Source: an uncultured Gammaproteobacteria bacterium
Lineage (GTDB): Bacteria > Patescibacteriota > Patescibacteriia > Magasanikbacterales > GWA2-37-8
Length of the DNA stretch: 64,000 bases
Reading direction: 5' to 3'
NCBI GenBank assembly: GCA_964444705.1
Contig: CAYUHX010000002.1
Coordinates: 22,869-86,868 of the forward strand
The position numbers and the translations under genes are program-made. Under the pieces are notes generated by a model. That model was given only the letters and a program-made list of their open reading frames with translations. It was not told where the DNA came from and did no database searches. Positions 3,223-44,779 of this stretch are shown here, piece after piece; position 1 is the first letter of the stretch; the number at the start of each line of letters is the position of its first letter.

Positions 3223-3867
3223 CTAGGCTAAATTAAGAAAGGAGGTTTTGGTCGCAACAAACTCAAGTAAAGCCGCCACTGTGCGCCCTTCGCTGATTTC
3301 TCCATGGGCGCATTTATCTAAAATTTCAGTAAAGGTAAACCACTTGCCTTGGTGAATGTCTTCACCTTCTTCATGAAGTTTATTCGTGGCGCTGCCGCAT
3401 ATCTCTTCGGCCAGGATGTAGTACAAATCCCATTCGACGGTGGCACCACATTCTTTTTTGGCAAAAAAGCGTAGTTGTGTGGCTTCAAGCTGGGCTTCTT
3501 CGCGCAATTCTTTGGCCGCTGCCGCCAGGATCATAGCTTCGGGCACCGCTTGGGTAAGGTAGGGGCGATAGTCATTAAAACTATCGACGACTTTTCCTCC
3601 GGGTAAGCGCCAGTCCAAAACGTTATTTCTTTCTAACCGAGCCTCTTGTTGCAAATAAATAGTTTTATTTTGTACCGCAATAATTCGGGTGCCAGGTGCG
3701 CGGACAAATTTTTCAAACACTTTGGCTATATAACCCTTACCTTCATCAACCAGCACTGGAAATTGTACAATTGCCCCAATGCGCCCTTCGCTTAAAATGG
3801 TCGGCGCGCCATTAGGGATAATTTTTGGTTCGTCAGGAGTGCGGATTCGAACAACATTCATTGTCAT
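3223..3867 (-). CDS. NUDIX-like hydrolase (degenerate Nudix box)
   Basis: LPGGKVV...KELREEAQLEA resembles the Nudix box (GX5EX7REUXEEXGU) with substitutions. Confidence 0.5.
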   Translation of the reverse strand: MTMNVVRIRTPDEPKIIPNGAPTILSEGRIGAIVQFPVLVDEGKGYIAKVFEKFVRAPGTRIIAVQNKTIYLQQEARLERNNVLDWRLPGGKVVDSFNDYRPYLTQAVPEAMILAAAAKELREEAQLEATQLRFFAKKECGATVEWDLYYILAEEICGSATNKLHEEGEDIHQGKWFTFTEILDKCAHGEISEGRTVAALLEFVATKTSFLNLA

Positions 3868-3965
3868 ATTTTTTAAAAAATAATTAAATCATTAGGCTGA
3901 GCAATATTTTGAAATTTTGTGCATAGAGCTATACCCGCGCACCGGTTAAATTACCACTTTCGTAT

Positions 3966-4610
3966 TTACTTGCCGCTGATTCGTTGCACTTCAAATTCTC
4001 CGTTGCTTCGTTTAATGAGACGATAAAAAGCATATACCGTTTGTCCTTCATGTGGAGCGGCCACGCCAAAAATAAAAGGTCGGTCGGATGATAAATTACC
4101 TCGGGTATAATATTCTTCAAAGACGGCCATTGCATCACCATCTGATGGTTGCCAAGGGCGCTGGTGTGCGTCGAGTTCGTGTGTTTCCACCGGATGAGTG
4201 TGCACATCGCCAATGAATTCTAAATTTCTATACTGTGGATACGCCCTTCGTAGTTCCTCGATTGAGCGCTGAATGGCGGCTAAGTTGGGTAATACGTATT
4301 CAACATGCTCGGTATACAGCGCTTCGCCCTGAGCATCTCGAGAGTCATGCGGGTCAACTTGCATTACTGCTTCGATAGTTACATGGACTGAATTTTTTTC
4401 TTGCGGCCGCACTTTTCCTAGAAGTATGGCGTATTTTTCTCGTCGTGCCCTTAGATCACTCGGCGTAACTTCTGGGAGATGCGCACCAACTTTTTCAGTA
4501 AAAGAAAAAGTGACTCGCAAATTTTCATCGAGAAAATCTATCTTTTGCGATGTGGCGTCTCTGGCTTCGGTTGCCGATCCCCTTCTATTAAAACGATCTC
4601 GTGGAGGCAT
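3966..4610 (-). CDS. hypothetical protein with HxH...SDGD metal-binding-like motif (possible JAB/MPN-like)
   Basis: GDVHTHPVETHE...QPSDGD resembles a JAMM-type motif but with non-canonical spacing. Confidence 0.4.
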   Translation of the reverse strand: MPPRDRFNRRGSATEARDATSQKIDFLDENLRVTFSFTEKVGAHLPEVTPSDLRARREKYAILLGKVRPQEKNSVHVTIEAVMQVDPHDSRDAQGEALYTEHVEYVLPNLAAIQRSIEELRRAYPQYRNLEFIGDVHTHPVETHELDAHQRPWQPSDGDAMAVFEEYYTRGNLSSDRPFIFGVAAPHEGQTVYAFYRLIKRSNGEFEVQRISGK

Positions 4611-36933: not shown

Positions 36934-37311
36934 TTAAGCTTGGGTATTGAGGTAGGCCTTCAACGCATCTTCAAGTCGACTTGTTTGTGGTGAAAAAAGA
37001 CGTATCCCGTTAACTGTAGTCGTTGGTCCTTCCGCGTGTACTTTTTCGTCCATACTTGGCCAGCTGGCGTTATCTTTAATTTGTTTTAATAGATCGGCTG
37101 CGACACTACCATTTAACTCAGGAAGAGGTATGCCCAGATTATCTATGACTGTTTTTAATTTTTCGATTGGATCAAGTGGGGCGAAATCACCGGTTTGAGA
37201 CATTCTTTCGCTCATAGAGTTTAAATTAGAGTAATTAATAGTTAAATTATAGCTTACTTTAGGGAATTTGTGAATATGTGTGTTACATGACAGAAAACAA
37301 AAACCGCCCAC
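36934..37311 (-). CDS. hypothetical protein
   Basis: 125-aa ORF. An internal Met at MSERMSQ may be the true start. No recognisable motif. Confidence 0.35.
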   Translation of the reverse strand: MGGFCFLSCNTHIHKFPKVSYNLTINYSNLNSMSERMSQTGDFAPLDPIEKLKTVIDNLGIPLPELNGSVAADLLKQIKDNASWPSMDEKVHAEGPTTTVNGIRLFSPQTSRLEDALKAYLNTQA

Positions 37312-37402
37312 GTCTCCTGCGCCGAGCGGCGAGAAATCTCGTCGCCACGCGTAGGGGTGTGGGCGGGGTTTGTGCGTGCGGCAACTTGGTGGGCAGCAGC
37401 CT

Positions 37403-38362
37403 CTATGGGGTTACCTCAAAGCGGTCTCGGGTGGTGGTGCCACGATCAAAGAATACTTCCTTGGCTGTAACCTCCACGTTGCCATTCGGCAAAAATTCAA
37501 CTAGCGCATAGCCGTTGAAGGGGTTTTCCCATCCTTCATGGAAGGCCGCACCGCCGTTGCCCACTATCACATCGCGGTAGTGTCCGCGGACGAGCGTATT
37601 CTTCACATGCTCATATTTGTGATCATGGCCGGCGAAGTACAGAGTGATGTTGTGCCGCTGCAGAATAGCTTTAATTTCCGCTTCGATCCACGGAGTGGTT
37701 CCGTGGGAGTCGAAGTACTGATGGCGGAGCACGAACGTGTATTCCGTGGGGATGGCCATCACGGTTTTGAGCCACTTGGCCTGAAGACGATCTTTGTCGC
37801 CCTTCCAGACGTCCGTGGCGATCGAGACGAATTTCGCCCGTCGGCCCTGTTCGTCCTCGATGAGGAACCACCAGTAGTATGGCGCCTCCTCGCCAAGCAT
37901 CCGCATTACCTGGAGACAGGGGAATTCGTGATTGCCGAGCGTGGTATGGATGGGGGCCTTGAGGTGGGCGCGGGCGGCGAGAAGGATGTTGACCTGGGCG
38001 GCGATGGTGTCGGCCGGGCATCCTCGATCAACGTACACTTGGTCGCCGGTGTCCCCAACAACCACCGCCTCATCCTCGTCGATGGCCTTGAAAATCGCTT
38101 CCACGACCTTTGCTGGATAGGAATTGATTTCATTTTTTTTTGGCGGCCGATGATCGCCCGTGATGGCGAACCGCGTCCTTGCTAGCCGTTTGACCTTGAT
38201 GGTCGGCTTTTGATGGAGGGGTGCCATCCCCAGGATGGCCGAGGCAGTGTGGGGCACGATGTCAGTGGCCAGCTGGGTCGCCGTTTCCTGGTTGCAGGCC
38301 GTGAGGCAGCTGAGGATGACGATGATTCCGAAAATTTTCACGTTGCCACTGTTCATACGCAT
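37403..38362 (-). CDS. secreted (lipoprotein) calcineurin-like metallophosphoesterase, GC-rich
   Basis: Signal/lipobox ILSCLTAC. Metallophosphoesterase motifs GDTGDQ, GNHEF and AGHDHKYEH. About 60% GC. A strong terminator hairpin lies 3' of the gene on the minus strand (37304..37365 + TTTTTGTTTTC). Confidence 0.65.
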   Translation of the reverse strand: MRMNSGNVKIFGIIVILSCLTACNQETATQLATDIVPHTASAILGMAPLHQKPTIKVKRLARTRFAITGDHRPPKKNEINSYPAKVVEAIFKAIDEDEAVVVGDTGDQVYVDRGCPADTIAAQVNILLAARAHLKAPIHTTLGNHEFPCLQVMRMLGEEAPYYWWFLIEDEQGRRAKFVSIATDVWKGDKDRLQAKWLKTVMAIPTEYTFVLRHQYFDSHGTTPWIEAEIKAILQRHNITLYFAGHDHKYEHVKNTLVRGHYRDVIVGNGGAAFHEGWENPFNGYALVEFLPNGNVEVTAKEVFFDRGTTTRDRFEVTP

Positions 38363-38550
38363 GGGCTACTCCTGTGCGAGTGGTTTTAAAGGGCGAATGT
38401 TCCCAACTGAGAGGAACAGATGACTCTATCAAATACAAGGCTGTTCAGCAAGTTTTAAATTTAAAAAACCAGATGCAGCCTTTCAACTCAAATTGCATTG
38501 AGACGAAGGGCTAGGGCATCTGGTTTTGTGGCGGAAAGATGTGCTGGACT

Positions 38551-39075
38551 TCAGTTGCAGCCGGCCGGAGTGCAACCACTCGGGCAGTCTTGGGTAGCTG
38601 CGGCGCAGTAGCCTTCGGGCAGGCACTTGCCCGTGGCGTACATCATCACGCCGCCGCCGCTGTAGTTGACGCACTTCTTCACCGTGCCGCTCAGCGAGCA
38701 GCAATCAAGATCGGATCGGCAGGCATTGCACCCTCCGATGACTGCAGTCTCTGGCGGTACGCACAGTTTGGTGCCGTCTTTTTGGGTGTGGCAGTTGGAC
38801 CATCTCCAGCAGCTGGTCACGAAGGGGCACAGCGCCCCTTCCGCCATTCCCTCGCACCGCCGAACCGTGTTCGGTTCGTACGGCCCGGTGCAGAGACCGC
38901 CAAGGTCGATGGTCGGTTGGGACGTCATCAGATCGGCCGGGCTGCCGCCGTCCATGATCGACATGAGGTCGTCGTTGGCAGGGGTGATTCTTGCCATCGA
39001 TCCGTCTGTCGACGGGTTGCAGGCGATGGTGAGAGCAGTCAGTGCTACATAAAGAGACAAACTCGGAGTGCGCAT
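38551..39075 (-). CDS. cysteine-rich secreted lipoprotein, hypothetical, GC-rich
   Basis: MRTPSLSLYVALTALTIAC signal/lipobox. About 20 Cys in about 150 mature residues (CNAC, DCCS, CPSGC). About 63% GC. Confidence 0.5.
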   Translation of the reverse strand: MRTPSLSLYVALTALTIACNPSTDGSMARITPANDDLMSIMDGGSPADLMTSQPTIDLGGLCTGPYEPNTVRRCEGMAEGALCPFVTSCWRWSNCHTQKDGTKLCVPPETAVIGGCNACRSDLDCCSLSGTVKKCVNYSGGGVMMYATGKCLPEGYCAAATQDCPSGCTPAGCN

Positions 39076-39255
39076 TGTGTTCCTTTCGTCGCGCGACGCC
39101 CCTATGGCGCCCGACCCTTTTTCTCGGGTCTAAAAAATGCCTCCCCACACGAGAGACATTGTTTGGATCAGAGATAAGAACGAACGCGTGAATTTAACCC
39201 AAGGAATATCATGAAATACTTAATTAGTCAATTAATATAGGGTGAATATTTCGAT

Positions 39256-40989
39256 TTATTTTTTTTCAGAATTACCACCGTGCGAGCCAGGTGTTCCTTC
39301 ATTGCCGCTTCTTCGGGTGGGAAAAGCCGCTCGTAATTTTGGAACTTCTTTTTTACGAGTAAGTTCGCCCGGAGCTTTTATTTCTCCGGTTTTAAAATAA
39401 TGAACGGCTCGGCCGCGACTTTCCTCATTAAAACCAGTATTAGTAGCATTGGGTTCTAAAAACAGCGCCTGTTTTTCGGGTGGTTCGGAGAAATAGGGTG
39501 CGAGCAGCTCCAGTACTCGTTCTACATTCACTGGTTCGCCGCCGTAATCTTCTAACCCCGCCAGCATTGCTTTGGCTTTTGTTTTAAATTCAGCAAAGCG
39601 TGCAGGTAAACTTCCTCGTACCTCGGCTGAGTCGGTAAAAATAATGGTGAGCGGTTTTCCGAGGCGATCAAGTTGTGAAATTTCTTTTGCCACTTCTTTA
39701 GGAGTAGTAAAAAAACTTTCATCAATTGCTACTAATCCTTTGGTAGAGCGTTCAATTTGCGTGCCCAAGCGTTCCGACCAGTTGGCCACGCCGCCGTCAA
39801 TCGACACATTCAGGCGAGCGAGCGCCAATACCGCGGGTGAAACTGTGGCGGCTGCTCCGGGTTTAGGTTCGGCGCGGGTAAGACGTTGTTGGTCGATTGC
39901 CATTTGCATGCCAAGTTGCTCGGAAAGCAAGGCGCACAGTTCAAGCATGGGGCCAGCCTTGGTGCTGCGGTATGATACAAAGAAAAAATCGAGACCGTTT
40001 TCTTTTAAACGATTGCGCAACTCTTCGCGTAGGCGGGCAACCTTGCCCAAAAATTTTTTGACCACGGCTTGATCGGGAATTGAACGGATATCTGCTGCCA
40101 ATTGTATAATTTCATCAGCCAGCTGTTTCCACGATCCTTTCATTTCGGCTGTGAGTTCTTTAAGAGCAGTCAAACCTTCAGTTGGAGAAAGTGTTTCAGT
40201 TGTAGTTGCGCCCGCTTTTGCTGCTTTCACTTCATCAAAAGTAAAATCATCATCATCATTGAGCACGCGGCCACGGCGAATAAATTCTTGGATAATAGTT
40301 TTTCCTTCTTGTGAGAAAGAGGTAGTGCCATCGGTGGTAATGCGACACGCATTAAGCTTTCTTAGTTTAAGCACTGCATCACTGCCTTGAGTTTTAGCCA
40401 ACTGAGAAAAATAGCCTTCTTTGCCCGGTTTATCGTTGAATTTAGCGAGCTCGGCTTGGGGCCCAAACCATACCATCATAATGGGTTTTTTAGCCGCCTG
40501 CAGGGCCTCCATTTTTTCAATCACCGAATTAAATTCAGCCGGGTTGGTAAAAAATTCAGGTGTAATAAATACGGCCGCATGTGAGCAGGAAGCAATGTCT
40601 GTCGTCGTGCCCACTGCTTCTGCCGAAGTGTGAAAACGATTGCCCAGTTTGGCTGCATTTTTTAATTCGGCATCAAGGCCAGCTTTGAGTTCATTAAAAC
40701 CAACGCGTGCAGACCCCTGTTCGTCGGCAAGGGCGACGCTCGTTTCGTCTAAAGACAGATATAGTCGCGTTGGTCGCCACACCTCTTTATTTTCTCCAAG
40801 GCATACTCTGAGAGCCTCACGTAGCTGTGCCAGGCCACGCAATCGTCTGCTTCTTTCACTGGAATCAAGAAGGGGTGGGGCGTCTTTTAATGCTTCACAT
40901 TTTTGCTGCAAAGCATCAAGTTTTCGATCAATGGCCTCGCGTTGCATTTGTTCGGCCGCCGCCGCACGAGAAGATTCAAAATCGGTCAT
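39256..40989 (-). CDS. protein with two tandem TIR-like domains, each preceded by a coiled-coil segment
   Basis: Internal repeat at aa about 75-180 and aa about 334-456. Unit B: DFFFVSYRS (TIR betaA-like DvFISY) ... GLVAIDESFFTTPKEVAKEI ... KPLTIIFTDSAEV (TIR betaD-like IPIFY.VDPS.V). Unit A: AVFITPEFFTNPAEF ... KPIMMVWFGPQAEL. Confidence 0.5.
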   Translation of the reverse strand: MTDFESSRAAAAEQMQREAIDRKLDALQQKCEALKDAPPLLDSSERSRRLRGLAQLREALRVCLGENKEVWRPTRLYLSLDETSVALADEQGSARVGFNELKAGLDAELKNAAKLGNRFHTSAEAVGTTTDIASCSHAAVFITPEFFTNPAEFNSVIEKMEALQAAKKPIMMVWFGPQAELAKFNDKPGKEGYFSQLAKTQGSDAVLKLRKLNACRITTDGTTSFSQEGKTIIQEFIRRGRVLNDDDDFTFDEVKAAKAGATTTETLSPTEGLTALKELTAEMKGSWKQLADEIIQLAADIRSIPDQAVVKKFLGKVARLREELRNRLKENGLDFFFVSYRSTKAGPMLELCALLSEQLGMQMAIDQQRLTRAEPKPGAAATVSPAVLALARLNVSIDGGVANWSERLGTQIERSTKGLVAIDESFFTTPKEVAKEISQLDRLGKPLTIIFTDSAEVRGSLPARFAEFKTKAKAMLAGLEDYGGEPVNVERVLELLAPYFSEPPEKQALFLEPNATNTGFNEESRGRAVHYFKTGEIKAPGELTRKKEVPKLRAAFPTRRSGNEGTPGSHGGNSEKK

Positions 40990-41224
40990 ACAGGTATAAA
41001 AAATAATTATGGTAGATAGTCAACTACCTTAATACAATCATTCTAAATAATCAATTTGAAAAAACAAAACCCCTATCATTATTGAGAAGGGGTTTCGGAG
41101 CATCAAGTGCTTCTTCAGCCTCTCGTTATTACTACAAAGCGTTTATAGAAATAACGAGTCTGGAGGTTGGAGAGGCGTCGCAGCTCGTCGGTCGTGGACG
41201 GCTGGCCGACCTGGGGCGCTGTCC

Positions 41225-42325
41225 TTAGAGGGCACCGACCCGACGCATAATCTCGATCGCCGCCTTGAGGAGCGCTTCTTCCGTCGCGTTCTGGCGGCGG
41301 TCGTCCAGCCCTTCCTCACCATAAGGACCATGATCCGTCTCGCTCTCAACGTACGCGCTCGCCGCAGGCGTGTGGTCTTCGGGCCAGACGCTGATACCTT
41401 CGAAGCGTTGGTCGCTCCCGAAATCAACCGCCCGGAGCATAAGGACGAGCTCCTCGGCACCGGTTTCCGTCGGGGTGTTATCCATCGCGATGTAGTCGGT
41501 GCTCATGCACCGAACAATCAACGCGGCCCGCTCCCACAGCGACGCAATCTTGGTTGCGGGCGTGTGCTCCGTCACCCGCTCGTAGCGCAGTGGCCTTCCG
41601 CTAAAGTGTGACAGCATCCTCTCGATCATGGTGAGATCGTCCATGGCGTGGTGGAAGAGTACAAGCGGGATCTTGCTCGCCGCGATCTCCGCATCCACCC
41701 GGGTCGCCTCCTTCGCGAGATTGATCTTGTCAGCTCGCACCCCGCCGCGAGTGAGGAGTTTGAAGCCACCGTCCGTTGCTTCCGTATTGATGTTGATACG
41801 ATGCGCATCGGCGTGGGTGGCTGCCAGGTCGGCGGAATCTTTAAGGTTACGTCCCTTGGCGATGCTGATGTAGAACCCCCGTGATGCCCGGGCCGCGACA
41901 TCGTCATATTCCGCTACCTCGTTTCCGAGAAGGAACATGAGACCGTCATTTCCCTCCACCAAGGGCGCTAAGGATGCTGCCCCCCAACACACGTTGGCGA
42001 AGATGCCGAGAACGCTGGGGAATTTTCGGACCAGTCGGGTGAGGTGCGCGGGGACGAGGATGAACGGTTCCCCATCCTCAGTCGTCAGGATGATTTCCGC
42101 TTCATTGCCGTGGCCGATGAAGTGGATGATGTGGGGGCTGAAATCCGTCAGAGCATCGGACAAGGCTTCGAGCGTGCCGTCCGCACAGAAGCGGAATTCA
42201 AACTCGTTCGTTCGTCCAGCCTTTTCAAGGGCGCTGATGATTCTTTCCATCTCCCCCTGGCCCACCTTGTTTGCAGTCTTTGGAATGGCCTCGAACACTA
42301 ATACGCGAATCGGCGGCATGTTCAC
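41225..42325 (-). CDS. CHAT/caspase-like (peptidase C14-fold) domain protein with C-terminal domain of unknown function
   Basis: HIIHFIGHGNE (CHAT HfaGHG motif, His72) and LGIFANVCWGAAS (catalytic Cys113) give the caspase His-Cys dyad spacing. C-terminal 200 aa unassigned. About 62% GC. Confidence 0.55.
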   Translation of the reverse strand: MNMPPIRVLVFEAIPKTANKVGQGEMERIISALEKAGRTNEFEFRFCADGTLEALSDALTDFSPHIIHFIGHGNEAEIILTTEDGEPFILVPAHLTRLVRKFPSVLGIFANVCWGAASLAPLVEGNDGLMFLLGNEVAEYDDVAARASRGFYISIAKGRNLKDSADLAATHADAHRININTEATDGGFKLLTRGGVRADKINLAKEATRVDAEIAASKIPLVLFHHAMDDLTMIERMLSHFSGRPLRYERVTEHTPATKIASLWERAALIVRCMSTDYIAMDNTPTETGAEELVLMLRAVDFGSDQRFEGISVWPEDHTPAASAYVESETDHGPYGEEGLDDRRQNATEEALLKAAIEIMRRVGAL

Positions 42326-42608
42326 CTCTCTGTTGGGATTTCAGAACTGCGGTCTTTGGCGTCCATTACCTGGAGCCTTCCGCAATAGCAACAGGGTTCT
42401 GTATAAACCCTGCTTTTATCGCGAAAGGTGTCAGGCTAGGTTTAGCCCAAGTTCACATTTTTATTTTTAAATTATGAATGAACGGTCGCAGATGTAATCC
42501 ATTCCACATGGCTCATTGATTTTTATGAGCAATCGGGAATGGAGGGGGCCGGCCGGGTGCAGAAGGCACCGGCAGCGAAGAGGCCCCACGTCCATGTGTT
42601 CTTTGTTC

Positions 42609-43652
42609 TTAGGCGGGCTGCGCAGCCGTCGGGGCCGGGCCGGCCCCGACCTGAGCCGTGGACTCGCTCTTGAACCAGGCGCCGGCGTTCGCGAGAAGCG
42701 CCTTCTCGACCAGTTCCACGAGCGCCTTGAGGTCGCTGCCCTCGTCCACCGAGATGGCGAGCGGCTCCAGCACGTTGAGGGTCTGGAGGCAGAGGGCGAG
42801 CCGAAGCTCGTCCTCCGGGCTCTGCCGCGCGGCCGAAGCGACGCCGACCAACCATCCGAGACCCGCGAGCGGCAGCACCGTCTCGAGCACCCCCAGCCCA
42901 CCGTTCAGCCACCAGACGCGGCTGGTGAGCATGGCCAGCTCCTCCTGCTTCTTGCGCAGGTAGGAGAGCTGGCCCTTGTCCACGTCCGTCAGCCTCTCGG
43001 TGACGTAGGTGGCCGGGGTCAGCAGCGCCGTTTTGAGGTTTTTCTCGATGTCAGCCATCTCATCAGAGCTGAGCTTGTCCAGCGCGCAGGTGGGGATGGC
43101 CGCTCCCACCTTGCCGATGAATTCCTCGCGGGTGAGGAGGCTGGCCCTGAACGTGAAGAGGAGGCTCTTGATCTGCTCGGACGCGACCCTGCACAGCTGG
43201 TGCACGCGTCCGTAGCGCGCCACCCCGCCCCGCAGCAGCCCCACCAGAGCAGCCAGTGCTGAAGCGCTGACCGCCGGGTGCCAGGCGTGCCAGGGGATGA
43301 GGTGGAAGCCGCAGGCCGCGATGAGCATGGTGAGAGGCAGGAGCACAATCGCTCGGCGTCGCCAACGCACGGGCTTCTCAAGCGGCGTCAGCCCCACCAC
43401 GAGGGTGAGAAGCAGGGCGCCGATGAGCGTCTCGTTGGGTAGCCAGTTCTTGGTCGCCAAGACGGCCGCCAGCACCACGATGGGCGCCAGCACCTTGACG
43501 AGGCGGTTGAGGCGCTGGGCCATGGCGTCAGCGCGACTCGCAGTCTTGCTGCACTCGCGCTGCTTGGTCGCCGCGTGCCGCAGCGCTTGGACATTGCCAG
43601 TTGTCGGGGTGTACGGTTTCGTCGCAGGAGTCGTCGGGTCGTCCATCTGCAC
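42609..43652 (-). CDS. multi-pass membrane protein (4 N-terminal TM + 1-2 C-terminal TM), hypothetical effector
   Basis: Hydrophobic helices LVKVLAPIVVLAAVLA, LIGALLLTLVVGL, AIVLLPLTMLIAACGF and WWLNGGLGVLETVLPLAGLGWLVGVASAA. About 65% GC. An AT-rich promoter region lies upstream. Confidence 0.45.
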   Translation of the reverse strand: MQMDDPTTPATKPYTPTTGNVQALRHAATKQRECSKTASRADAMAQRLNRLVKVLAPIVVLAAVLATKNWLPNETLIGALLLTLVVGLTPLEKPVRWRRRAIVLLPLTMLIAACGFHLIPWHAWHPAVSASALAALVGLLRGGVARYGRVHQLCRVASEQIKSLLFTFRASLLTREEFIGKVGAAIPTCALDKLSSDEMADIEKNLKTALLTPATYVTERLTDVDKGQLSYLRKKQEELAMLTSRVWWLNGGLGVLETVLPLAGLGWLVGVASAARQSPEDELRLALCLQTLNVLEPLAISVDEGSDLKALVELVEKALLANAGAWFKSESTAQVGAGPAPTAAQPA

Positions 43653-43870
43653 CTCTTTCAGGGGTGTGGGGTTACAGGAAAAACAAATCTCTAAATAACC
43701 ATCTTATAAAGAAACACATGGATTGTAATGAGCAAAATCAGTAGGAATCTGAAAATGATGTACTACCAAACCTTTTTCAAATTCTTAAGCTGAATTTTAA
43801 GTGAGAGAGAGTTTTTAGAGAAGAAAAATTAAGTGAATGAAGAAGAAAAAAATTGAAAATTTCTGGGGGG

Positions 43871-43916
43871 CCTGATCGCCGTCGTCTGCGCGTGGGGCAG
43901 GGCGACGGCGATCAGG
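43871..43916. terminator. 14-bp perfect inverted repeat hairpin (terminator between convergent or adjacent island genes)
   Basis: cctgatcgccgtcg-tctgcgcgtggggcaggg-cgacggcgatcagg. Confidence 0.45.
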
Positions 43917-43958
43917 TGGTCTTCTGTACGCGCACGGGGGTGAGATGAGGTAGCGGGC

Positions 43959-44441
43959 CTAGCCGCCGCGGATGCTACCGTCGCGGAGCTGATCGTCCTC
44001 GTCGCGCGAGGGGCGGCCGTTCAGTGGCTCGTCGATGCAGCGCAGGTGCTCGTCCCGGCAGCGGTGGCTGTTGTCCAGCTCGAGGAGCTTGCTCAGCTCG
44101 ATCGCCGGGAAGCTGGACGTCCAGCTCAGCCGCCAGCCGTTGCTGTGCCAGGCGGCGACCACCGCCTTCTCCACCTCGGGGTGGCTCATCAGCTCGATGA
44201 GCTGCTGCGCCTTGTCCCGGTGCAGGTCACCGCCGAGGCCGATGAACATCGACCCTCGGTCCTGGTCCTCCATCTGCATGAAGAAGGTGATGAGCGGGTT
44301 GGCCCGCCGCACCATCTCCTGCACCTCGTGGGCGGTCAGGGGCCGCGGCTTGGGCCGGTGCGCGTCGGGGATGCCGTCCCCGTTCGCGTCGGGGAAGGTG
44401 CTGCCCGGTGAAGTTGTTTCACGATCAGGGTTCCAAGGCAT
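43959..44441 (-). CDS. GC-rich hypothetical protein with DGDGIPD (thrombospondin type-3-like Ca-binding) motif
   Basis: Start chosen at MPWNPD with GGAGGA SD 6 nt upstream. The track ORF extends to 44543. About 65% GC. Confidence 0.4.
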   Translation of the reverse strand: MPWNPDRETTSPGSTFPDANGDGIPDAHRPKPRPLTAHEVQEMVRRANPLITFFMQMEDQDRGSMFIGLGGDLHRDKAQQLIELMSHPEVEKAVVAAWHSNGWRLSWTSSFPAIELSKLLELDNSHRCRDEHLRCIDEPLNGRPSRDEDDQLRDGSIRGG

Positions 44442-44779
44442 GGGTCGTCCTCCAACAGTGCATCGCCGTGGTTTCTCACAACACAAACGCTTGTGGGCGC
44501 TGTGTTCCCTATCGCCGGCGTGCGACAAGGGTAATAAACTCAAAAAAATGTAAGTTTAGTATCCTTGCCACATTTTCGGCGACACTGCGTACAAAAGAGT
44601 TATTTTTGGCTAATTTATCTGTAGTGGATAAAAAAGACACGAAAATAACTATTCATTATAGCATATTTTTACTCGTTTGTCAACGGAACCATGCGGACAA
44701 AATTTTTATATCCTGCACCATTGAATAGTTTAAAAATTATGCTATAGTGGCTAAGTATATACTTATTTTATCTTAATAT

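Follow-up and report, generated by a model that had tools for sequence, protein, structure and literature searches.

In the 64-kb window analyzed here (the whole 64,000-nucleotide stretch of contig CAYUHX010000002.1), a minus-strand gene lying between rpiB and ileS encodes a member of the CHAT protease family joined to a C-terminal region of orphan sequence. The account that we favor, from sequence and from analogy with characterized systems, is that of a CHAT protease effector that was gained by horizontal transfer, is probably active and carries a regulatory or targeting tail specific to its lineage. Residues about 1–215 almost certainly form a complete, compact CHAT core with the caspase-hemoglobinase fold (clan CD), as sequence comparison and structural modeling both indicate. 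By its sequence relationships the protein is a divergent, singleton member of a large known family and not a new kind of system.

The gene corresponds to a minus-strand open reading frame (ORF) that spans 41225..42325 and comprises 366 codons when counted from a GTG. This GTG, at 42325, lies in frame two codons 5′ of an ATG at 42319. The ATG is the likelier start because GAGAGGTG precedes it and because the deposited NCBI protein (P0001), a singleton, has 364 aa and is identical to the ATG-start product. Apart from this small correction, the reading frame and the two motifs reported in an initial annotation of the locus are present where it had placed them. In GTG numbering, HIIHFIGHGNE begins at residue 65, LGIFANVCWGAAS at residue 106 and KIPLVLFHH at residue 218. 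The GTG-based His72 and Cys113, which are separated by 41 residues, are His70 and Cys111 when counted from the ATG. At the first, second and third codon positions, GC content is 0.62/0.42/0.70 for the N-terminal half and 0.64/0.44/0.77 for the C-terminal half, and this in-frame coding pattern excludes the C-terminal half as a frameshift artifact of a high-GC ORF.

Assignment of the N-terminal domain to the CHAT family draws on several searches. Comparison by phmmer with all PDB sequences matched a single chain, 8tl0_A, annotated as a CHAT domain-containing protein (E = 9.3e-7), with residues 14–175 aligned to residues 295–461 of that chain. Identity to this protein is only about 20%. Among 1.84 billion representative proteins, an exhaustive HMMER search returned 1819 matches at E ≤ 1e-3, of which 26 were at E ≤ 1e-10. 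The relatives are 25–35% identical across the whole CHAT domain, and the best 150 of the 1819 all match residues about 3–210 only. Pfam CHAT was detected in 40/40 relatives of one alignment, A1, and in 85/87 of a second, A2, with best E values of 5.9e-15 and 4.5e-51, respectively. Membership is therefore strong in a transitive sense, since the relatives match Pfam CHAT and phmmer ties the protein to 8tl0. The PADLOC model SAVED_CHAT matched residues 44–77, the His motif, only (E = 0.035).

Structural modeling agrees with this assignment. AlphaFold2 (AF2), run with A1 as the multiple sequence alignment (MSA), predicted residues 1–210 with predicted local distance difference test (pLDDT) values of 83–98. 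In a Foldseek search of the PDB with this model, the SAVED-CHAT filament 8tl0 ranked first (E = 1.4e-12, about 210 columns, root-mean-square deviation about 3 Å), followed by caspase-11, -7, -1, -4 and -9, CED-3, gingipain R, legumain and a C11 peptidase (E = 4e-5 to 8e-4). At E ≤ 1e-3, 53 PDB chains were matched, and the best 50 of the 53 are SAVED-CHAT chains, caspases, gingipain, legumain and C11. The initial annotation had proposed an N-terminal CHAT/caspase-like domain with a His–Cys dyad, and the phmmer match to 8tl0, the 1819 relatives and the AF2/Foldseek result all agree with it. It had also pointed to the Peptidase_C14 profile (PF00656), which did not match the protein in Pfam at E ≤ 1; among the relatives in A1, 3/40 showed weak Peptidase_C14 matches. 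The modeled structure thus suggests a resemblance to Peptidase_C14 at the level of fold only.

The predicted catalytic residues are found in the motifs HFIGHG and FANVCWG. In the phmmer alignment, the His and the Cys fall on positions 355 and 402 of the 8tl0 SEQRES record. The catalytic dyad of SAVED-CHAT is H375/C422, and the H375A/C422A mutant is dead (bioRxiv 10.1101/2023.06.23.546230). Because SEQRES 355 and 402 are both offset by 20 from H375 and C422, the two residues occupy the dyad positions. Conservation was counted in a MAFFT alignment of 160 relative domains plus the protein itself, 161 sequences in all. In GTG numbering, H68 and Y152 are conserved in 161/161, E25 in 160/161, N111 in 158/161, H72 in 154/161 and C113 in 146/161. 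All columns that are invariant in A1 are kept, namely E23, H66, G69, H70, N109, C111, D139, F149 and Y150 in ATG numbering (E25, H68, G71, H72, N111, C113, D141, F151 and Y152 in GTG numbering). With the phmmer E value and the 1819 relatives, the near-invariant His and Cys columns place the two motifs well outside chance. The initial annotation had staked its protease assignment on two checks, a caspase fold in structure prediction and conservation of the His and Cys among homologs; with the Foldseek matches to caspases and the counts for H72 and C113, it withstood both. The CHAT protein is, as far as these residues can tell, probably a catalytically competent cysteine endopeptidase.

Several observations weigh against a functional protease effector. 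When searched directly, Pfam CHAT (PF12770), the other profile to which the initial annotation had pointed, covers residues 30–74 only, and its score of 16.5 bits (E = 0.006) falls short of the gathering threshold, 24. The protein is off-consensus at 7 of the 28 columns conserved at ≥80%, for example F147A, S115G, L110A and A119L, so activity may be reduced or altered. Apart from weak matches of the PADLOC candidate family PDC-M01B to a metallophosphoesterase (E = 0.02–0.05), none of the genes in the surrounding island matches a PADLOC defense model, and Pfam, PADLOC and NCBIfam revealed no sensor NTPase, cyclase, SAVED, CARF or recognizable TIR partner adjoining the CHAT gene. The CHAT protein, its C-terminal domain and the downstream neighbor are singletons in the searched databases, and therefore no conserved neighborhood backs any system-level role.

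A singleton orphan amid unrelated foreign genes, with several consensus positions lost and no detectable partner genes, could be a functionless or decaying remnant of transfer. It could likewise be a regulatory protease outside defense, with no part in cell suicide, since functions in development and regulation are known for CHAT proteins as well, HetF being an example. We consider either alternative unlikely. The 364-codon ORF is intact and shows coding-type GC periodicity throughout, the dyad and all subfamily-invariant residues have been kept, and the gene has its own Shine-Dalgarno sequence and terminator-like hairpin.

The relatives provide the setting in which an active CHAT effector with an accessory tail can be understood. 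In these proteins the CHAT module is N-terminal, C-terminal, arranged in tandem or present alone, in proteins of 174–200 aa. Fusion partners were counted in 127 scanned relatives (40 from A1 and 87 from A2) and include TIR_2 (7), LRR-Roc-COR (4), protein kinase (3), Metallophos (3), nSTAND1 (2), WD40 (2) and Peptidase_C14 (1). EAD11 is fused in six A2 relatives at E ≤ 1e-4 and, more weakly, in one A1 relative (E = 0.001), with EAD1 and EAD7 also present, and AAA_35 is fused in three relatives of A2 and one of A1. TPR and transmembrane (TM) membrane-anchor modules also occupy the accessory slot. The same set of modules has been described for NTP-dependent conflict systems, where caspase-like peptidases, TIR domains, calcineurin-type phosphoesterases and SLATT pores can replace one another as effectors (PMC7159879). 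Contigs of the relatives are mostly too short for their neighborhoods to be read, and a scan of GTDB species-representative contigs retrieved only three distant CHAT relatives. One contig, L008 (Logan SRR34411019), is an exception. There, the gene for a 380-aa relative, P0038, at 3270–4412 adjoins a response-regulator/histidine-kinase gene and a sigma-54 activator gene.

The accessory slot of the CHAT protein itself is filled by the orphan C-terminal region. The initial annotation had left about 200 C-terminal residues unassigned after an N-terminal domain of about 150. The region is indeed an orphan by all searches, but its length is about 150 aa, because the CHAT domain reaches about residue 215. 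No relative of the region was found by local phmmer within the 150 best CHAT homologs, and the C-terminal 171 aa had no homolog at E ≤ 10 in a word-indexed database of 5.8 billion clusters. A word-index search with the whole protein likewise gave no homolog other than the protein itself. Nothing was matched in Pfam or the PDB at E ≤ 10, or in plasmids. The AF2 models of the region are of low confidence and mostly helical, with pLDDT values of 35–64 in the full-length prediction with the MSA and 38.7 from the single sequence. Since the region fills the slot that is variable among relatives, by analogy it is most likely a lineage-specific regulatory, targeting or second-effector module. As a module with no relative in the approximately 15 billion proteins behind the searched databases, it could be a regulatory or effector domain that is new among caspase-like proteases.

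Read by eye, the C-terminal region has a β-α-β rhythm (PLVLFHH..., ALIVRCMSTDY..., ELVLMLRAVDF) reminiscent of TIR, and it was examined against TIR domains taken from CHAT fusions. Against a TIR hidden Markov model (HMM) built from nine such domains, for which 400 shuffled controls were run overall, the region scored inside the range of 200 shuffles. Using hhalign, with reversed and shuffled controls, the region was collinear with 10 CHAT-fused TIRs over 66 columns, at a probability of 1.2% and P = 0.045, which one of eight shuffles equaled. No TIR domain was thus detectable in the C-terminal 150 aa as a profile match in Pfam, the PDB, the local TIR HMM or hhalign, and a BLASTP comparison of the C-terminal domain with the 577-aa downstream neighbor was not significant. 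The TIR likeness of this sequence is a lead and not a result.

These comparisons bear on whether the protein could be a self-contained CHAT-TIR fusion, in which the orphan tail would be a highly degenerate TIR-like NADase, signal generator or oligomerization module. P0038 offers a template, since its domains are laid out in the same way and its C-terminal slot holds a genuine TIR_2; 7/127 relatives carry TIR_2. The hhalign alignment puts LVLFHH on TIR strand βA and ALIVRCMSTDY on βC in collinear order, and by eye a Glu appears 12 residues past the βC Ser, as in P0038. However, the hhalign P value was equaled by a shuffle, the HMM score lay in the shuffled range, and Pfam and the PDB gave nothing at E ≤ 10. 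A BLASTP alignment of the two proteins covers the CHAT part alone, and the AF2 models are low-confidence and mostly helical. A degenerate TIR is an improbable identity for the tail.

For a CHAT protease effector with a lineage-specific tail, the mechanism would resemble that of other CHAT and caspase-like proteases. The protease would rest in an inactive state, and a trigger would release it by bringing about ligand binding or oligomerization, acting via the C-terminal module or through oligomerization. Once activated, the protease would cleave one or more cellular or invader target proteins. A part in defense, as a conflict or abortive-infection effector, is suggested as the likeliest role by analogy with SAVED-CHAT, Craspase and NTPase-linked CHAT effectors, and we hold it tentatively, at a little under an even chance.

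The gene immediately downstream had been described in the initial annotation as a double-TIR gene, and the protease as paired with it. Its 577-aa product is internally duplicated (residues 42–174 against 306–451, pairwise blastp E = 0.004), so the first part of the description is upheld; the second is not, as no tool used gave a significant TIR match. Each repeat is made up of a coiled-coil helix and an α/β-looking unit, and the two repeats have a common [F/Y]F-T-x-P-x-E motif. For the whole protein, Pfam TIR, TIR_2 and ThsB did not match at E ≤ 1. The C-terminal half alone gave TIR_2 at E = 0.12, with no stretch passing and ThsB absent. Searches of NCBIfam, PADLOC, PHROGs and the PDB found nothing relevant, plasmids and phages contained no match, and the word-index search returned no homologs. 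The TIR HMM of CHAT-fused domains scored the neighbor no better than shuffles, and hhalign against TIR gave probabilities of 0.5–9%, the highest being for repeat 1 (probability 9%, P = 0.0035).

The CHAT gene and this neighbor follow each other on one strand, with a 235-bp AT-rich spacer between them. The spacer contains a terminator-like hairpin, which a consensus terminator scan missed, its loop being longer than 8 nt. RNA folding of a 91-nt stretch of the spacer containing the hairpin gave −22 kcal/mol (z = −2.35). The GC content at third codon positions (GC3) is 0.39 for the neighbor and 0.72 for the CHAT gene, which implies different origins. On the evidence of the spacer, the CHAT gene appears to be its own transcription unit. 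Because a significant TIR match is lacking, the codon composition differs and the spacer is terminator-like, the pairing of a caspase-like protease with a TIR protein put forward in the initial annotation is not supported.

A pair of this kind would have had a precedent in type IV Thoeris, where an operon of TIR and caspase-like protease genes is a proven defense system (Rousset et al., bioRxiv 10.1101/2024.10.24.620036). By this analogy, the 577-aa product would act as a tandem TIR, detecting infection and producing a signal derived from nicotinamide adenine dinucleotide (NAD); that signal would switch on the CHAT protease, which would degrade cellular proteins. Consistent with such an arrangement are the adjacency and common strand of the two genes, the duplication, the β-α-β patterns, such as DFFFVSYRS and LVAIDESFFTTPKE, with a visual resemblance to TIR, the TIR_2 value for the C-terminal half, the hhalign result for repeat 1 and the occurrence of CHAT-TIR fusions among relatives. 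The detection rule for type IV Thoeris is a TIR_2 (PF13676) or ThsB (PF08937) HMM match at i-E ≤ 0.1 (bioRxiv 10.1101/2024.10.24.620036), and the neighbor fails it and gives no significant TIR match in Pfam, NCBIfam, PADLOC, the PDB or the local TIR HMM. The difference in GC3, the AT-rich spacer with its hairpin and a C-terminal tail with no recognizable ligand-sensing domain all speak against it, as does the nature of the protease, which is nearest to SAVED-CHAT, whereas that of type IV Thoeris, the N7-cADPR-activated PsCaspase, is likened to PCaspase (bioRxiv 10.1101/2024.10.24.620036). We judge a Thoeris-like pair to be very unlikely.

The wider locus bears on the origin of the CHAT gene. 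The window is part of a bacterial chromosome of about 43% GC that includes rpoB, ftsK, recA, ruvC, pyr genes, rpe, rpiB and ileS. Six same-strand genes occupy the interval from rpiB (36.9 kb) to ileS (45.4 kb), and their composition is a gene-by-gene mosaic (Table 1). Within this island, 37300–44600, five genes have GC3 values of 0.71–0.88 and one of 0.39, compared to about 0.45 for host genes. The spacers around each foreign gene are 180–300 bp long and AT-rich (29–40% GC). These features suggest repeated single-gene acquisitions from high-GC donors. The CHAT gene, given its GC3 of 0.72 against about 0.45 and the AT-rich spacers round the foreign genes, is horizontally acquired, within a patchwork of separately acquired genes. 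The island shows neither an integrase or transposase nor a tRNA or flanking repeats, and an integron-cassette or mobile-element origin was rejected for want of an integrase, tRNA or flanking repeats. The Rfam scan of the window detected one tRNA only, far from the CHAT locus. Every island protein for which a look-up was possible is a singleton.

Table 1. Features of the CHAT gene and the surrounding island (positions in the window).
Feature	Position	Strand	Details
CHAT-family protease gene	41225..42319	minus	364 aa from ATG at 42319; stop codon 41225-41227
CHAT (caspase-hemoglobinase fold) protease domain	41675..42319	minus	residues about 1-215, ATG numbering
Orphan C-terminal region, about 150 aa	41228..41674	minus	residues 216-364; in-frame by codon-position GC
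Codon of predicted catalytic His (His72 GTG / His70 ATG), motif HFIGHG	42110..42112	minus	aligned to 8tl0 His
Codon of predicted catalytic Cys (Cys113 GTG / Cys111 ATG), motif FANVCWG	41987..41989	minus	aligned to 8tl0 LNAC Cys
Terminator-like hairpin, GAAACCCCU...AGGGGUUUU then GUUUUUU	41058..41097	minus	between CHAT stop codon and neighbor
Downstream neighbor ("double-TIR" gene of the initial annotation), 577 aa	39256..40989	minus	internally duplicated; GC3 0.39, host-like
Cys-rich lipoprotein-like ORF	38551-39075	minus	GC3 0.75
Metallophosphoesterase lipoprotein	37403-38362	minus	GC3 0.71; Pfam Metallophos E 2.7e-12; lipoprotein-type signal peptide
Multi-TM protein, 347 aa	42609-43652	minus	GC3 0.88; 4-5 hydrophobic segments (hydropathy scan)
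194-codon ORF	43959-44543	minus	GC3 0.85; likely real start ATG 44441

The gene immediately upstream of the CHAT gene encodes a multi-TM protein that, from its sequence, may be a pore-forming conflict effector. It matches NCBIfam SLATT_1 (NF033634) over residues 32–91 at E = 0.0075, below the cut-off (16.2 against 41 bits), and Pfam DUF4231 (PF14015) over residues 98–168 at E = 0.088, again below the cut-off (13.7 against 24.7 bits); SLATT_3 gave E = 0.76, and there was no match in plasmids. The protease might then be one half of a protease-plus-pore pair, releasing or activating a membrane-disrupting effector by proteolysis. Caspase-like proteases activate bacterial gasdermins in a comparable manner. 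To our knowledge, there is no precedent for a CHAT protease cleaving a SLATT protein. The upstream gene is foreign, high in GC and on the same strand, its product has 4–5 TM segments with weak SLATT matches in two libraries, and a perfect sigma-70 consensus promoter is present further upstream, at 44683–44655. SLATT, caspase-like, TIR and calcineurin modules also co-occur in conflict systems (PMC7159879). These points are offset by SLATT scores far under the cut-offs, a GC3 of 0.88 against 0.72, a 289-bp spacer and searches that found no homologs or conserved neighborhood. Such a pair is, in our estimation, distinctly unlikely.

The same low standing applies to the most ambitious combination, an undescribed abortive-infection module composed of the CHAT protease, the neighbor as a degenerate tandem TIR that acts as sensor or generates a signal, and a SLATT-like pore, all diverged past current profiles. 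If it were true, the TIR-caspase theme of type IV Thoeris would be extended to CHAT proteases and SLATT pores; we think there is little chance of this. As it stands, the CHAT protein adds one divergent singleton to a very large, architecturally promiscuous protease family and matters little in that respect. The locus as a whole is an unusually clean case of gene-by-gene high-GC acquisition into a chromosome of approximately 43% GC, which may be of interest for the capture of defense-type genes.

Other features of the window were recorded. The sigma-70 promoter at 44655–44683 (minus strand) agrees with the consensus at 12/12 positions, with TTGACA, a 17-nt separation, TATAAT and a TG extension, and lies upstream of the 194-codon ORF, within the AT-rich spacer there. 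Directly downstream of that ORF, at 43871–43916 (minus strand), is a GC-rich inverted repeat that is perfect over 14 bp, CCTGATCGCCGTCG / CGACGGCGATCAGG, with its arms 18 nt apart and followed by a T-rich run, which looks like a terminator brought in with the foreign gene. The presence of a metallophosphoesterase in the island and of Metallophos fusions in 3/87 A2 relatives may be a coincidence or may reflect a shared conflict-system repertoire. When 39 other ORFs of the window were scanned with PADLOC, mad2 matched at 612–1163 on the plus strand (E = 4e-13); SspH (E = 8e-58), mad8 (E = 1e-33) and a HerA-like match (E = 6e-6, probably FtsK) were obtained from the same set without assignment to particular ORFs, and their source ORFs are not among ten window ORFs that were rescanned. 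These matches outside the island may represent other defense genes or housekeeping paralogs. Several housekeeping proteins (IleRS neighbors, PyrD, PyrC and FtsK) score well under the NCBIfam equivalog cut-offs, which suggests a poorly sampled bacterial lineage.

Among known systems, one comparison is with the caspases, metacaspases, gingipain and legumain of clan CD. The fold is common to all, and the dyad residues come in a similar order and at a similar spacing, with the His after one β-strand and the Cys after the next. Identity is 8–13%, however, and the CHAT protein has no p20/p10 organization and no CARD or death-fold prodomain. Type IV Thoeris is approached in that the gene of a caspase-fold protease adjoins one suspected by eye of encoding TIR-like domains. 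The two differ in the failure of the neighbor under the TIR_2/ThsB rule, in the looser arrangement of the genes, which, with the hairpin-containing spacer and GC3 values of 0.72 and 0.39, do not look like a tight operon, and in the protease type, CHAT rather than PCaspase-like.

SAVED-CHAT from Haliangium ochraceum (8tl0; type III-B CRISPR/CBASS-like) is the best match in both sequence and structure, with aligned HFIGHG and N-x-C motifs. Unlike SAVED-CHAT, the protein described here has no SAVED sensor that Pfam or NCBIfam can match, and the PADLOC SAVED_CHAT match is confined to the His motif. Its CHAT domain is N-terminal, from residue 3, whereas that of SAVED-CHAT is C-terminal, and no Cas10, CD-NTase partner or PCaspase substrate gene was recognized in the island.

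The subfamily to which the protein belongs by HMMER is that of the short mobile CHAT modules, with the consensus ILFLAANP...IVHFSGHG...VVLNACYS (Kaur, Burroughs, Iyer and Aravind 2020, PMC7159879). These modules usually occur in fusion or linkage with STAND, AAA_35 or Roc NTPases, EAD, TPR, WD40, LRR or TIR_2. The present protein differs in having none of these modules, no NTPase gene in its island and a C-terminal module that is unique to it. What it has in common with them is a core of approximately 170–210 aa and the same invariant residues.

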